Assembly: GCF_016026235.1 (NCBI RefSeq)
Contig: NZ_CP065613.1
Source of the DNA: Escherichia coli
GTDB taxonomy: Bacteria > Pseudomonadota > Gammaproteobacteria > Enterobacterales > Enterobacteriaceae
DNA: 64,000 bases
Reading direction: 5' to 3' (one strand)
In this document: positions 2,905 through 43,452 of the stretch, in pieces
Layout of the letters: every line of letters begins with the position of its first letter
How positions within the stretch are numbered: position 1 is the first letter of the stretch
Position numbers and translations under genes: made by a program
Notes under the pieces: model-generated
Told to the model about the DNA's origin: nothing
The model's input: only the letters and a program-made list of their open reading frames with translations
Databases searched by the model: none

Positions 2905-2919
2905 GGTAATGACTCCAAC

Positions 2920-3423
2920 TTACTGATAGTGTTTTATGTTCAGATAATGCCCGATGACCTTGTCATGCAGCTCCACCGATTTTGAGAACGACAGTGACTT
3001 CCGTCCCAGCCTTGCCAGATGTTGTCTCAGATTCAGATTATGTCGCTCAATGCGCTGAGTGTAACGCTTGCTGATAACGTGCAGCTTTCCCTTCAGGCGT
3101 GATTCATACAGCGGCCAGCCATCCGTCATCCATACCACGACCTCAAAGGCCGACAGCAGGCTCAGAAGACGCTCCAGTGTGGCCAGAGTGCGTTCACCGA
3201 AGACGTGCGCCACAACCGTCCTCCGTATCCTGTCATACGCGTAAAACAGCCAGCGCTGACGTGATTTAGCACCGACGTAGCCCCACTGTTCGTCCATTTC
3301 AGCGCAGACAATCACATCACTGCCCGGTTGTATGCGCGAGGTTACCGACTGCGGCCTGAGTTTTTTAAGTGACGTAAAACCGTGTTGAGGCCAACGCCCA
3401 TAATGCGTGCACTGGCGCGACAT
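2920..3423 (-). CDS. insB: IS1 transposase InsB' frame (made as InsAB' fusion by -1 frameshift)
   Basis: 167-aa ORF matching IS1 InsB; overlaps insA in the -1 frame. Confidence 0.9.
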
Positions 3424-3617
3424 CCGACGCCATTCATGGCCATATCAATGATTTTCTGGTGCGTACCGGGCTGAGAGGCGGTGTAAGTGAACTGTAGTTG
3501 CCATGTTTTACGGCAATGAGAGCAGAGATAGCGCTGATGTCCGGCAGTGCTTTTGCCGTTACGCACCACGCCTTCAGTAGCGGAGCAGGAAGGACATCTG
3601 ATGGAAATGGAAGCCAC
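3342..3617 (-). CDS. insA: IS1 InsA (transposition inhibitor / N-terminal part of transposase)
   Basis: 91-aa ORF with C4 zinc-finger motif CPSC...CSHC. Confidence 0.9.
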
Positions 3618-3672
3618 GCAAGCACCTTAAAATCACCATCATACACTAAATCAGTAAGTTGGCAGCATTACC

Positions 3673-3681
3673 GCGGCACCT
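3673..3681. repeat. IS1 target-site duplication GCGGCACCT (copy 2)
   Basis: Identical to 2896-2904. Confidence 0.9.
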
Positions 3682-38331: not shown

Positions 38332-40242
38332 TTACCTGGAGGATGGTATCGCAAGGAAACGAACCGCACGGGCAATGTCACGGGTGCGCGGCGCGGGCGG
38401 CAGACTGGCGAGAAACGTCGCACCGTAAGGGCGCATCACCAGCCGATTATCGCAAATCACCAGCACGCCGCGATCATCGGCGTCGCGAATCAGTCGCCCT
38501 ACCCCCTGCTTGAGAGTAATCACCGCATCCGGCAGTTGTACTTCATCGAACGGGTCGCCACCGCGCAAACGGCAATCTTCCATGCGCGCTTTTAACAGTG
38601 GATCATCAGGAGAGGTAAACGGCAATTTGTCGATAATCACCAATGACAGCGTATCGCCACGCACGTCCACCCCTTCCCAGAAACTGCTGGTTGCCACAAG
38701 AAGCGCGTTACCGGCACTGACAAATTGCTGCAACAGTTGCCCTTTGCTGGTTTCCCCCTGCAATAATACGGGAAGTGTCATGGTAGCGCGGAACTGCTCG
38801 GCCAGATCGCGCATCATGGCGTGCGAGGTACAAAGCATAAAACAGCGACCGTTGTTAGCTTCGATGATCGGGCGCAGCATAGCCGCCAGTTGCCGCGCGG
38901 AACCCGGTTGATTGGTTTGCGGCAGGTTGCGCGGCACACAGAGTAACGCCTGGCGGCTGTAATCAAACGGGCTTGGCAATAGCAACGACTCCGCCTGTTC
39001 TATCCCAAGCCGCGAGGTGAAATGATGCAGATCGTCGTTCACCGACAGCGTTGCTGAGGTGAAGATCCAGCTACCGGGCTTTTGCGCCATTAACTCTTTG
39101 AATTTATCCGCCACGCTGAGCGGCGTGAGAGCCAGAGTAAAATGGCGCGAAGTGCATTCGTACCAGTAGCTGTAGCCCGGCTGATTGATCTCTTTTAGCC
39201 GCTTCAGCCGTGTGCGATACAACGTGGCGCGCTCAAATGCCGCATCCAGCAAGGCGGAACGCCCCAGTGACAGTTTCGCCACGTCATAACAAAGTTCCAG
39301 GGTGTCATCGAGCAGTAAAAATGCCCGCTGAATTTGCGGATTAGCTAACAGCTCACGCAGGTTACCGCGATAACCTGGCTCACCGAGTTGCAGACGAAAA
39401 TCCTGCGCACTCTGGGCAAGACGATCAGCGCACTTTTGTAACTGCTGGGTGTCTTTTAATTCGGTGCGGTAAGCGATGGTGATGTCTTTTGCCAGGTCGA
39501 GCAGTTGTCGACTGGAGAGTGACTGACCAAAATACTGGCTGGCAATGTCCGGTAGCTGGTGGGCTTCGTCGAAGATCATGACGTCCGCTTCCGGGATCAA
39601 CTCGCCAAATCCACTCTCTTTAACCACCATATCCGCTAGAAAGAGATGATGGTTTACCACCACCACATCGGCGTCCATCGCTTTTTTACGTGCTTTGACC
39701 ACAAAGCAATCTTTATACATCGGGCAGTCGCTGCCAAGACAGTTGTCGTTGGTGCTGGTGACCAGCGGCCACGCCTGTGAATCTTCCGCCACGCTGACGC
39801 AGGTGCTGATATCACCATCGACTGTTTGATTAGACCAGGAGCGCAGCAGGATCACATCGCTTAAGATTTGTACCGGCAGTTCGTCCCCCGCCAGCGCCTG
39901 CTGTTCGAGACGTTCAAGGCAGAGGTAGTTTGAGCGCCCTTTCAGCAGCGCCACGTTGCCCGTGTATTTCAACGCCTTTGAGACTGTTGGCAAATCGCGG
40001 CTGTAGAGCTGATCCTGCAACGCTTTTGAGCCGGTCGAGATAATGACTTTCTTTTTCGCCCGCAGCGCAGGAGCCAGGTAAGCGTAGGTTTTGCCCGTAC
40101 CGGTTCCTGCTTCCACCACCAGCGGCTGGCCTTTTTCTATCGCCTGGGTGACGGCTACCGCCATCTGTCGCTGTGGTTCTCGCGGCTTAAAGCCTGGTAT
40201 CGCTTTCGCCAGCTGACCGTCTGGTGCAAAATCGTCCGTCAC
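38332..40242 (-). CDS. yoaA: DinG-family ATP-dependent helicase YoaA
   Basis: 636-aa ORF with Walker A GTGTGKT, DEAH box and Fe-S cysteines. Confidence 0.9.
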   Translation of the reverse strand: MTDDFAPDGQLAKAIPGFKPREPQRQMAVAVTQAIEKGQPLVVEAGTGTGKTYAYLAPALRAKKKVIISTGSKALQDQLYSRDLPTVSKALKYTGNVALLKGRSNYLCLERLEQQALAGDELPVQILSDVILLRSWSNQTVDGDISTCVSVAEDSQAWPLVTSTNDNCLGSDCPMYKDCFVVKARKKAMDADVVVVNHHLFLADMVVKESGFGELIPEADVMIFDEAHQLPDIASQYFGQSLSSRQLLDLAKDITIAYRTELKDTQQLQKCADRLAQSAQDFRLQLGEPGYRGNLRELLANPQIQRAFLLLDDTLELCYDVAKLSLGRSALLDAAFERATLYRTRLKRLKEINQPGYSYWYECTSRHFTLALTPLSVADKFKELMAQKPGSWIFTSATLSVNDDLHHFTSRLGIEQAESLLLPSPFDYSRQALLCVPRNLPQTNQPGSARQLAAMLRPIIEANNGRCFMLCTSHAMMRDLAEQFRATMTLPVLLQGETSKGQLLQQFVSAGNALLVATSSFWEGVDVRGDTLSLVIIDKLPFTSPDDPLLKARMEDCRLRGGDPFDEVQLPDAVITLKQGVGRLIRDADDRGVLVICDNRLVMRPYGATFLASLPPAPRTRDIARAVRFLAIPSSR

Positions 40243-40373: not shown

Positions 40374-40718
40374 ATGACTATCGTTCGTATCGATGCTGAA
40401 GCCCGCTGGTCTGATGTAGTAATCCACAACAACACGCTCTACTACACTGGTGTACCGGAAAACCTCGACGCCGATGCCTTTGAGCAAACCGCCAACACGC
40501 TGGCACAGATTGACGCCGTGCTGGAAAAACAGGGCAGCAATAAATCGAGCATTCTGGATGCCACCATTTTCCTGGCCGATAAAAACGACTTCGCGGCGAT
40601 GAATAAAGCGTGGGATGCCTGGGTTGTCGCGGGTCATGCGCCGGTGCGCTGCACGGTACAAGCGGGTTTGATGAACCCGAAGTATAAAGTTGAAATTAAG
40701 ATTGTGGCTGCGGTGTAA
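40374..40718 (+). CDS. yoaB: RidA/YjgF-family protein YoaB
   Basis: Start placed at MTIVRIDAEARW (114 aa). Confidence 0.85.
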   Translation: MTIVRIDAEARWSDVVIHNNTLYYTGVPENLDADAFEQTANTLAQIDAVLEKQGSNKSSILDATIFLADKNDFAAMNKAWDAWVVAGHAPVRCTVQAGLMNPKYKVEIKIVAAV

Positions 40719-41113
40719 GCTTTATCGAAGCAAAATAAGTCAGACGATAATTTATCGATAATACTGGTCGGTTTTACATAAATCGACCAGAGAATAAGAT
40801 ATTACTGTTGATGCTTCTGCTAATTCATTATTTATATTTATAATTTCAATTTTATCTATAAAACTAACTATATAAATAAACATAAACATGCCGTTGTGTT
40901 CGCCCTTTGATTAGCAACTCTGGTTTTCTTTCTTAGCTGAACAATCTGGTTATAGCGTGCGGACTGACCGTTAATTTTCTCCATCTTACTGGATAACACA
41001 CCATGAACTGCTACTTTTAAAACACCTGAATGTCAACAGGTTAACTCGTGCCATATCGGGTGATGCTGCCAACTTACTGATTTAGTGTATGATGGTGTTT
41101 TTGAGGTGCTCCA

Positions 41114-41389
41114 GTGGCTTCTGTTTCTATCAGCTGTCCCTCCTGTTCAGCTACTGACGGGGTGGTGCGTAACGGCAAAAGCACCGCCGGACATCAGCGC
41201 TATCTCTGCTCTCACTGCCGTAAAACATGGCAACTGCAGTTCACTTACACCGCTTCTCAACCCGGTACGCACCAGAAAATCATTGATATGGCCATGAATG
41301 GCGTTGGATGCCGAGCAACTGCCCGCATTATGGGCGTTGGCCTCAACACGATTTTACGTCACTTAAAAAACTCAGGCCGCAGTCGGTAA
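41114..41389 (+). CDS. insA: IS1 InsA
   Basis: 91-aa ORF; differs from the 3342-3617 copy at 5 residues. Confidence 0.9.
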
Positions 41390-41811
41390 CCTCGCGCATA
41401 CAGCCGGGCAGTGACGTCATCGTCTGCGCGGAAATGGACGAACAGTGGGGCTATGTCGGGGCTAAATCGCGCCAGCGCTGGCTGTTTTACGCGTATGACA
41501 GTCTCCGGAAGACGGTTGTTGCGCACGTATTCGGTGAACGCACTATGGCGACGCTGGGGCGTCTTATGAGCCTGCTGTCACCCTTTGACGTGGTGATATG
41601 GATGACGGATGGCTGGCCGCTGTATGAATCCCGCCTGAAGGGAAAGCTGCACGTAATCAGCAAGCGATATACGCAGCGAATTGAGCGGCATAACCTGAAT
41701 CTGAGGCAGCACCTGGCACGGCTGGGACGGAAGTCGCTGTCGTTCTCAAAATCGGTGGAGCTGCATGACAAAGTCATCGGGCATTATCTGAACATAAAAC
41801 ACTATCAATAA
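41308..41811 (+). CDS. insB: IS1 transposase InsB' frame
   Basis: 167-aa ORF overlapping insA in the -1 frame. Confidence 0.9.
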
Positions 41812-41837
41812 GTTGGAGTCATTACCGGATTAGTGTG

Positions 41838-42017
41838 TTACTCGTCTTCATCCTCAAAACGCGCCACGATTCGCTCGCCGGAGTGGTTGGCACGCAGCTC
41901 TTCTGCCACCAGCGCGATTGCCTGGCCGCTGCTCATCCCTTGTGCCATCAGTTCCTGGATCCGCTCGACAGCTTTTTGCTGCTGTTCATGGGTGAGTGAA
42001 GGTAAACCTGCAAACAT
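41838..42017 (-). CDS. yoaH: UPF0181 small protein YoaH (59 aa)
   Basis: Manual translation [59 protein letters not shown]; below ORF-track cutoff; stop is 11 bp from the IS1 end. Confidence 0.8.
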
Positions 42018-42090: not shown

Positions 42091-43452
42091 ATGAAGACGT
42101 TATCTCCCGCTGTGATTACTTTACCCTGGCGTCAGGACGCCGCTGAATTTTATTTCTCCCGCTTAAGCCACCTGCCGTGGGCGATGCTTTTACACTCCGG
42201 CTATGCCGATCATCCGTATAGCCGCTTTGATATTGTGGTCGCCGATCCGATTTGCACTTTAACCACTTTAGGTAAAGAAACCATTGTTAGTGAAAGCGAA
42301 AAACGCACAACGACCACTGATGACCCGCTACAGGTGCTCCAGCAGGTGCTGGATCGCGCAGACATTCGCCCAACGCATAACGAAGATTTGCCATTTCAGG
42401 GCGGCGCACTGGGGTTGTTTGGCTACGATCTGGGCCGCCGTTTTGAGTCACTGCCAGAAATTGCGGAACAAGATATCGTTCTGCCGGATATGGCAGTGGG
42501 TATCTACGATTGGGCGCTCATTGTCGACCACCAGCGTCATACAGTTTCTTTGCTGAGTCATAATGATGTCAATGCCCGTCGGGCCTGGCTGGAAAGCCAG
42601 CAATTCTCGCCGCAGGAAGATTTCACGCTCACTTCCGACTGGCAATCCAATATGACCCGCGAGCAGTACGGCGAAAAATTTCGCCTGGTACAGGAATATC
42701 TGCACAGCGGTGATTGCTATCAGGTGAATCTCGCCCAGCGTTTTCATGCGACCTATTCTGGCGATGAATGGCAGGCATTCCTTCAGCTTAATCAGGCCAA
42801 CCGCGCGCCATTTAGCGCTTTTTTACGTCTTGAACAGGGTGCAATTTTAAGCCTTTCGCCAGAGCGGTTTATTCTTTGTGATAATAGTGAAATCCAGACC
42901 CGCCCGATTAAAGGCACGCTACCACGCCTGCCCGATCCTCAGGAAGATAGCAAACAAGCAGAAAAACTGGCGAACTCAGCGAAAGATCGTGCCGAAAATC
43001 TGATGATTGTCGATTTAATGCGTAATGATATCGGTCGTGTTGCCGTAGCCGGTTCGGTAAAAGTACCAGAGCTCTTCGTGGTGGAACCCTTCCCTGCCGT
43101 GCATCATCTGGTCAGCACTATAACGGCGCGACTACCAGAACAGTTACACGCCAGCGATCTGCTGCGCGCAGCTTTTCCTGGTGGCTCAATAACCGGGGCT
43201 CCGAAAGTACGGGCTATGGAAATTATCGACGAACTGGAACCGCAGCGACGTAATGCCTGGTGCGGCAGCATTGGCTATTTGAGCTTTTGCGGCAACATGG
43301 ATACCAGCATTACTATCCGCACGCTGACTGCCATTAACGGACAAATATACTGCTCTGCGGGCGGTGGAATTGTCGCCGATAGCCAGGAAGAAGCGGAATA
43401 TCAGGAAACTTTTGATAAAGTTAATAAGATATTACGCCAACTGGAGAAGTAA
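42091..43452 (+). CDS. pabB: aminodeoxychorismate synthase component I
   Basis: 453-aa chorismate-binding enzyme. Confidence 0.9.
   Translation: MKTLSPAVITLPWRQDAAEFYFSRLSHLPWAMLLHSGYADHPYSRFDIVVADPICTLTTLGKETIVSESEKRTTTTDDPLQVLQQVLDRADIRPTHNEDLPFQGGALGLFGYDLGRRFESLPEIAEQDIVLPDMAVGIYDWALIVDHQRHTVSLLSHNDVNARRAWLESQQFSPQEDFTLTSDWQSNMTREQYGEKFRLVQEYLHSGDCYQVNLAQRFHATYSGDEWQAFLQLNQANRAPFSAFLRLEQGAILSLSPERFILCDNSEIQTRPIKGTLPRLPDPQEDSKQAEKLANSAKDRAENLMIVDLMRNDIGRVAVAGSVKVPELFVVEPFPAVHHLVSTITARLPEQLHASDLLRAAFPGGSITGAPKVRAMEIIDELEPQRRNAWCGSIGYLSFCGNMDTSITIRTLTAINGQIYCSAGGGIVADSQEEAEYQETFDKVNKILRQLEK

Follow-up and report, generated by a model that had tools for sequence, protein, structure and literature searches.

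The 64-kb window (the whole stretch of DNA that was analysed) carries a copy of IS1, referred to here as IS1-B, between the genes yoaB and yoaH. To its left lie the helicase gene yoaA (38332..40242, minus strand) and yoaB (40374..40718, plus strand), which encodes an intact RidA/YjgF-family protein of 114 aa (Pfam PF01042, E=3.9e-31). To its right are yoaH (41838..42017, minus strand), encoding an intact UPF0181 protein of 59 aa (PF03701, E=2.8e-29), and the intact pabB (42091..43452, plus strand). The stop codon of yoaH is placed 11 bp (41827-41837) from the end of IS1-B, on the side of the right inverted repeat (IRR), just as the sequence-only reading of this locus had stated. The same reading had described the 340 bp that follow yoaB (40719..41058) as AT-rich and rich in stop codons, which was borne out by a GC content of 33.5% and by stop-rich sequence in all six frames. 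These 340 bp have 3 mismatches to K-12 and map to positions 2920-3259 of the E24377A locus (L001), and the 759-bp query made of yoaB and this spacer part was covered at ≥80% in 5394 of the 5426 complete E. coli genomes. Judged by their sequence, they are native and not novel, constituting the first 340 bp of the native 421-bp spacer between yoaB and yoaC.

IS1-B (41059..41826, plus strand) is 768 bp long and of the IS1A type, as determined by inverted-repeat pattern matches, ORFs and Pfam domains. Its left inverted repeat (IRL, 41059-41081, GGTGATGCTGCCAACTTACTGAT) and its IRR (41804-41826) fit the consensus patterns with 0 mismatches, and each of the two patterns had 2 matches in the window against 0 expected. 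The element encodes insA (41114-41389, 91 aa) and the insB' frame (41308-41811), with the A6C motif AAAAAAC (41365-41371) as the -1 frameshift site, and its products matched Zn_ribbon_InsA, HTH_Tnp_IS1 and DDE_Tnp_IS1 (PF03811, PF12759 and PF03400; E-values down to 5.9e-78). As both inverted repeats, insA/insB' and the A6C site are intact, the copy appears to be competent for transposition. It shares with the IS1A-type element of E. coli K-12 the same size, the imperfect inverted repeats of ~23 bp, insA/insB' and the A6C site, and differs by one mismatch from the IS1A-type copies of E. coli that match it best (99.9% identity), while a 100%-identical copy was found in none of the 5426 complete E. 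coli genomes. The sole difference common to the comparisons with the nine IS1 copies that were compared from the yoaB-yoaH interval is G256A, which reads as a synonymous change in insA. IS1-B is unambiguously an IS1 by every structural criterion except the target duplication, and it departs from a typical IS1 in lacking the 8/9-bp duplication and in carrying G256A.

The 9-mers that adjoin the element are GCCATATCG on the left (41050-41058) and GGATTAGTG on the right (41827-41835). They had been reported to be unlike each other and indeed agree at 4 of 9 positions only, so that there is no target duplication around IS1-B. In the un-inserted loci of K-12, E24377A and FDAARGOS_943 the two 9-mers form distinct sites with 489 bp between them (1894043-1894051 and 1894541-1894549 in K-12; 3251-3259 and 3749-3757 of L001 in E24377A), and no cryptic duplication emerged from the closer alignment. 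The annotation of K-12 MG1655 places yoaC (1894133-1894432) between yoaB (1893367-1893711) and yoaH (1894552-1894731, minus strand), in agreement with what the sequence-only reading had stated, and E24377A has the same layout with yoaC at L001 3341-3640, inside the missing 489 bp. The alignment to K-12 that had been proposed there yielded matching breakpoints. The ends of IS1-B abut L001 3259 and 3749, and the 489 bp in between, corresponding to K-12 1894052-1894540 and to L015 22605-23093 in FDAARGOS_943, are absent from the window. Compared with these three genomes, a segment holding the whole of yoaC has thus been replaced by one intact IS1, as had been suspected.

From left to right, the lost segment takes in 81 bp upstream of yoaC, the gene in full (300 bp, encoding a 99-aa DUF1889 protein) and 108 bp downstream. 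The endpoints of the deletion coincide exactly with both termini of the full-length IS1-B, and the missing target duplication is attributable to this associated 489-bp deletion. No remnant of yoaC, either as DNA or as protein, was found within the 64-kb window. An inversion in place of a deletion was considered and ruled out, as both flanks keep the reference order and orientation (yoaA-yoaB on the left and yoaH-pabB on the right), the collinear pabB on the right flank being the sign of a deletion. Just 3' of yoaC, the lost segment contains a strong hairpin and then a T-run (AGGACGCTTTT-10 nt-AAAAGCGTCCTTTTT). This structure probably serves as the terminator of yoaC, and the convergent yoaH may be subject to it as well. 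When the native and the rearranged interval were scanned for simple terminators and promoters, nothing rose above the shuffled expectation; the terminator scan missed this hairpin because its 10-nt loop exceeds the limit of 8 nt.

The nearest complete relative, FDAARGOS_943 (NZ_CP065615.1), is ~0.05% divergent, with ~33 mismatches in ~62 kb of aligned chromosomal sequence, and has an empty site with yoaC intact. As so close a relative has the empty site, the event that combined IS1 with the yoaC deletion is lineage-specific and recent. Relative to FDAARGOS_943, YoaA of the window has a G120D change. A search of the public collection for this allele, which marks the lineage, gave only 33 blocks, and in 27 of these the contig measured 20-50 kb. 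Four such contigs were read (L017-L020); they are 37.4-37.8 kb long, a length that matches the spacing of the window's two IS1 copies, and each ends inside IS1-B at the identical left junction. The left junction was reproduced in five independent assemblies altogether (L016-L020), two being re-assemblies of raw read sets, and contig JTCO01000124 spans the whole of IS1-B and, along 11,911 bp, is 100% identical to the window. The JTCO accession belongs to the draft genome of strain 4608-58, an enteroinvasive E. coli (EIEC) of type O143:H26 (PMC4319576). All the lineage members that were read, namely the 4608-58 draft and four further draft or read-set assemblies, carry the allele, which is real and fixed in the EIEC O143:H26 (4608-58-like) lineage, and the junction pair provides a clean marker for it. 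The PabB allele was also tried as a lineage marker and rejected for being widespread (1517 blocks); its lookup uncovered further IS1 insertions upstream of yoaC.

The interval delimited by the stop codons of yoaB and yoaH extends over 840 bp (L001 2920-3759) and has a GC content of 37% against 52-54% in its flanks, and IS1 is an element that prefers AT-rich targets. We fetched the genomes with IS1 in this interval and mapped every junction (loci L002-L012, L032-L043 and L045-L054), through which 15 distinct sites of simple IS1 insertion were identified, in both orientations and each with a duplication of 8 or 9 bp, the two lengths that IS1 produces (PMC12428005). The site duplicating CAAATTAA was used in both orientations by copies annotated as different IS1 types, and GCA_047308285.1 (L052) holds two IS1 copies 350 bp apart in the interval, inverted and at other sites. 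Besides these, STEC276 carries an intact IS1 without target site duplication (TSD) together with a 164-bp deletion inside yoaC, and GCA_000408585.1 and GCA_964051545.1 (L045/L053) carry a TSD-less IS1 of the opposite orientation with a 698-bp deletion that includes all of yoaC. In both alleles, as in the window, an intact IS1 without TSD replaces part or all of yoaC, but the breakpoints differ from those of the window, so these are independent events. The left flank of IS1 in the L045/L053 allele is AATTTATCG, which ends as GCCATATCG does, and GCCATATCG is similar to the true IS1 target duplications GCTTTATCG and ACGAAATCG of the same interval.

One of the 15 sites coincides exactly with the right junction of the window and is occupied in BL12, where IS1 has the same orientation, GGATTAGTG is duplicated on both sides and yoaC is intact; for GS04 and BHD6, too, the match ran through this junction in one piece. 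These simple insertions are identical to the window in orientation and in the right junction, at which IS1-IRR is joined to GGATTAGTGTGTTACTCG. BL12 differs from the window in that it keeps yoaC and the GGATTAGTG duplication, in 4 positions of its IS1 and in its chromosomal background, the left flank diverging by 2.3% and the right one by 0.23%, as against ~0.02-0.08% for FDAARGOS_943. As the background is distant and the IS1 differs, the BL12 insertion is independent of the one in the window, and it shows GGATTAGTG to be a genuine primary target of IS1.

In the search for precursors of the window allele, all 22 records that cover ≥80% of the junction-spanning query were examined or accounted for. 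An IS1 in plus orientation at GCCATATCG occurs in none of the 5426 complete E. coli genomes, and an IS1 end of either orientation joined to GCCATATCGTTATAATCC, the junction that a left-site precursor would have, gave 0 hits in the metagenome scan. X14-3 was taken up as a left-site precursor and rejected, because its IS1, flanked by a TGATATTAG duplication of its own, lies 21 bp further to the right. The left and the right junction were each scanned for among the species-representative genomes, with 0 hits in either case and thus no precursors among the representatives. Lookups by the TsaB allele and by the ancestral YoaA allele yielded no IS1-plus-yoaC precursor in the clade and turned up other, independent alleles.

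The sequence-only reading had offered an IS1-mediated adjacent deletion or recombination between IS1 copies as the origin of this structure, and the 489-bp replacement with collinear flanks supports that view, these two being the leading explanations. The most likely mechanism, which we consider probable, is the insertion of IS1 followed by a transposase-mediated adjacent deletion in the EIEC lineage. This is favoured because the endpoints coincide with the IS1 termini, BL12 displays a precursor-like state, GCCATATCG is target-like, FDAARGOS_943 has an empty site, no left-site insertion was seen and two further TSD-less alleles exist. An IS1A-type copy would first have inserted by ordinary transposition in the AT-rich yoaB-yoaH interval, the likeliest site being the yoaC-yoaH spacer with GGATTAGTG duplicated, the state that is present today in BL12. 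The resident IS1 would then have undergone intramolecular replicative transposition, its ends attacking GCCATATCG, 489 bp to the left, and resolution in the deletion orientation would have left one IS1 joined directly to the new target. A circle would have been lost in this step, taking with it yoaC, the second IS1 copy and the duplicated 9-mer on the left. The mirror order, with a first insertion at GCCATATCG and then a rightward deletion from IRR, would be equally compatible, and GCCATATCG could be either the novel joint, where the deletion step found its 9-mer target, or the site at which a first insertion, since lost, had taken place. Both the order of events and the involvement of one IS1 copy rather than two are what we infer from these comparisons.

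Adjacent deletions promoted by IS1 are reportedly a classical phenomenon, described by Reif & Saedler in 1975 and by Turlan & Chandler in 1995. As in the IS-promoted adjacent deletions of IS1 in gal, IS903, IS10 and IS150 in the LTEE, the window keeps an intact IS without TSD, one end of which lies on new sequence, and the flanks have stayed collinear while the DNA between them was lost; such deletions are described in general terms in PMC11708052. Copies of IS without TSD beside deletions have been attributed to adjacent deletion or to IS-IS recombination. For all 14 such cases in the LTEE, an IS had already been present at that position, and they were two-step adjacent deletions (PMC11708052). 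The two-step order was observed there by time series, whereas for the lineage of the window it is deduced.

Against the single-copy route it has to be said that the final structure is the same as that from recombination between two direct IS1 copies, and that no precursor was found within the lineage, BL12 proving no more than that IS1 does use this site. Two IS1A-type copies in direct orientation, at GCCATATCG and GGATTAGTG, could have recombined in a RecA-dependent manner with the loss of yoaC and one IS1, and the copy that remained would be a hybrid. The product would be indistinguishable from the observed structure, both flanking 9-mers resemble real IS1 targets, and the interval is struck often, at 15 simple sites and in both orientations. 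A double insertion is known in L052, though inverted, and IS activity is high, with three private insertions in 64 kb versus a 0.05%-divergent relative; one stable inverted double set against three deletion alleles would give a rough prior of about one third. However, this course requires three events in place of two, plus-orientation IS1 at GCCATATCG is absent from the 5426 genomes, the metagenome scan was empty, and a double-direct intermediate was not seen among the sampled genomes, which a transient ancestor could have escaped. IS1-B is one SNP away from the common IS1A-type and shows no mosaicism, being uniformly IS1A-type without segments of the other IS1 variant of the window, an observation that is uninformative if both parents were of the same variant. 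We favour adjacent deletion over recombination between two copies, to which we give a tentative place as the second candidate.

Much further down in probability is a one-step event, in which IS1 without duplication would have been captured at the break or intermediate of a spontaneous 489-bp deletion. IS capture of this kind was proposed for IS5 and IS481 by Ngan et al. 2024. TSD-less IS at the centre of deletions arising within a single overnight culture are on record (PMC11708052), and such a capture would be compatible with the final structure. The 14 of 14 two-step cases of the LTEE (PMC11708052) speak against it, as does the position of both breakpoints on ordinary IS1 target sequences, GGATTAGTG being exact in BL12 and the left 9-mer target-like, since sites chosen by transposase are then expected and not random breaks. 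We regard this capture as very unlikely. The least credible of all is an assembly artefact, in which two IS1 flanking yoaC, or an IS1 lying elsewhere, would have been collapsed or mis-joined as repeats. IS1 is indeed multi-copy and most assemblies of the lineage are short-read drafts with contigs that break in IS1-B. However, the window is contiguous over 64 kb across three IS elements, the left junction recurs in the five independent assemblies, of which two come from raw read sets, JTCO01000124 spans the element without a single difference, and the joined flanks are natural near-neighbours in correct order and orientation. The adjacent deletion remains the reading that we prefer over all of these.

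Apart from IS1-B, the window contains a second IS1, IS1-A (2905-3672, minus strand), which interrupts ydjH and is bordered by a perfect 9-bp duplication, GCGGCACCT, at 2896-2904 and 3673-3681. It is a divergent variant, with 67 differences from IS1-B in 768 positions, spread over the full length. Recombination of IS1-B with this copy was discarded as a source of the deletion, given its inverted orientation, its own intact duplication and differences that run across the whole element. An IS1 in FDAARGOS_943, located between ydjF and ydjE at a distance of ~2.8 kb, is 100% identical to IS1-A; the matching site of the window (around 81-89) is empty, so the two close relatives harbour one and the same variant at neighbouring but different sites. 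A third element, ISSso6 of the IS110 family (47316-48832), is a 1517-bp insertion between pdeD and yoaE relative to FDAARGOS_943 and most E. coli. Only 125 of the 5426 complete E. coli genomes carry it, EIEC strains and the large plasmids of such strains among them. The copy in the window is 1 nt shorter than the 1518-bp copies and has the typical C-terminal part of the transposase in another frame, so its transposase is probably frameshifted.

Over the 64 kb, the window and FDAARGOS_943 show seven IS differences, of which IS1-A, IS1-B and ISSso6 are specific to the window. Those specific to FDAARGOS_943 (L015 and L044; NZ_CP065615.1 920851-923240, 927246-928089, 940833-941530 and 946517-947214) are an IS66 between nimT and nimR, an IS5 in a diguanylate cyclase gene, an IS1A-type copy in ydjK and the divergent IS1 between ydjF and ydjE. 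Seven IS differences against ~33 SNPs in ~62 kb signify that IS turnover is fast relative to point mutation, which is typical of EIEC/Shigella.

Damage to yoaC by IS1 is recurrent in E. coli, and at least 4 distinct IS1 insertion sites were counted inside the yoaC coding sequence among the sampled genomes. Another kind of lesion was noticed in genomes sharing the TsaB allele of the window (L023, L025, L027 and L031), where yoaC has a 1-bp deletion in an A-run, causing a -1 frameshift at codon ~72 (L001 ~3550) and leaving a truncated protein of 79 aa. Its carriers include EC2641, which ranks second among the complete genomes in closeness to the window. This frameshift is an independent inactivation of the same gene. 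Three IS1-plus-deletion alleles, the insertion sites in the coding sequence and the A-run frameshift in several relatives suggest that, beyond a neutral hot spot, selection might have promoted the loss of yoaC in some lineages, this EIEC clone among them; taken jointly with the one-step capture, we judge this improbable.

As a consequence of the rearrangement, yoaC, a DUF1889 gene that is dispensable in K-12, is gone along with the 81 bp upstream of it and the terminator-like hairpin. In K-12 a knockout of yoaC is viable, and sensitivity to boric acid has been reported for it (PMC11502571). With the hairpin region downstream of yoaH removed, yoaH transcripts would be predicted to enter IS1 from the IRR side. 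The terminator and promoter scans provided no evidence of a regulatory gain from the rearrangement. The locus resembles the IS-driven reductive evolution of Shigella/EIEC in that it matches EIEC O143:H26 4608-58 and has private IS insertions, and differs from it in that only one small gene is lost in the window. The phenomenon as such is already known and belongs to textbook IS biology. For annotation, the finding explains the absent yoaC and the duplication-less IS1 in a genome of the EIEC O143:H26 type. Its added value consists in documenting a natural IS1 hot spot around yoaC and a small example of IS-driven gene loss in the EIEC/Shigella setting.
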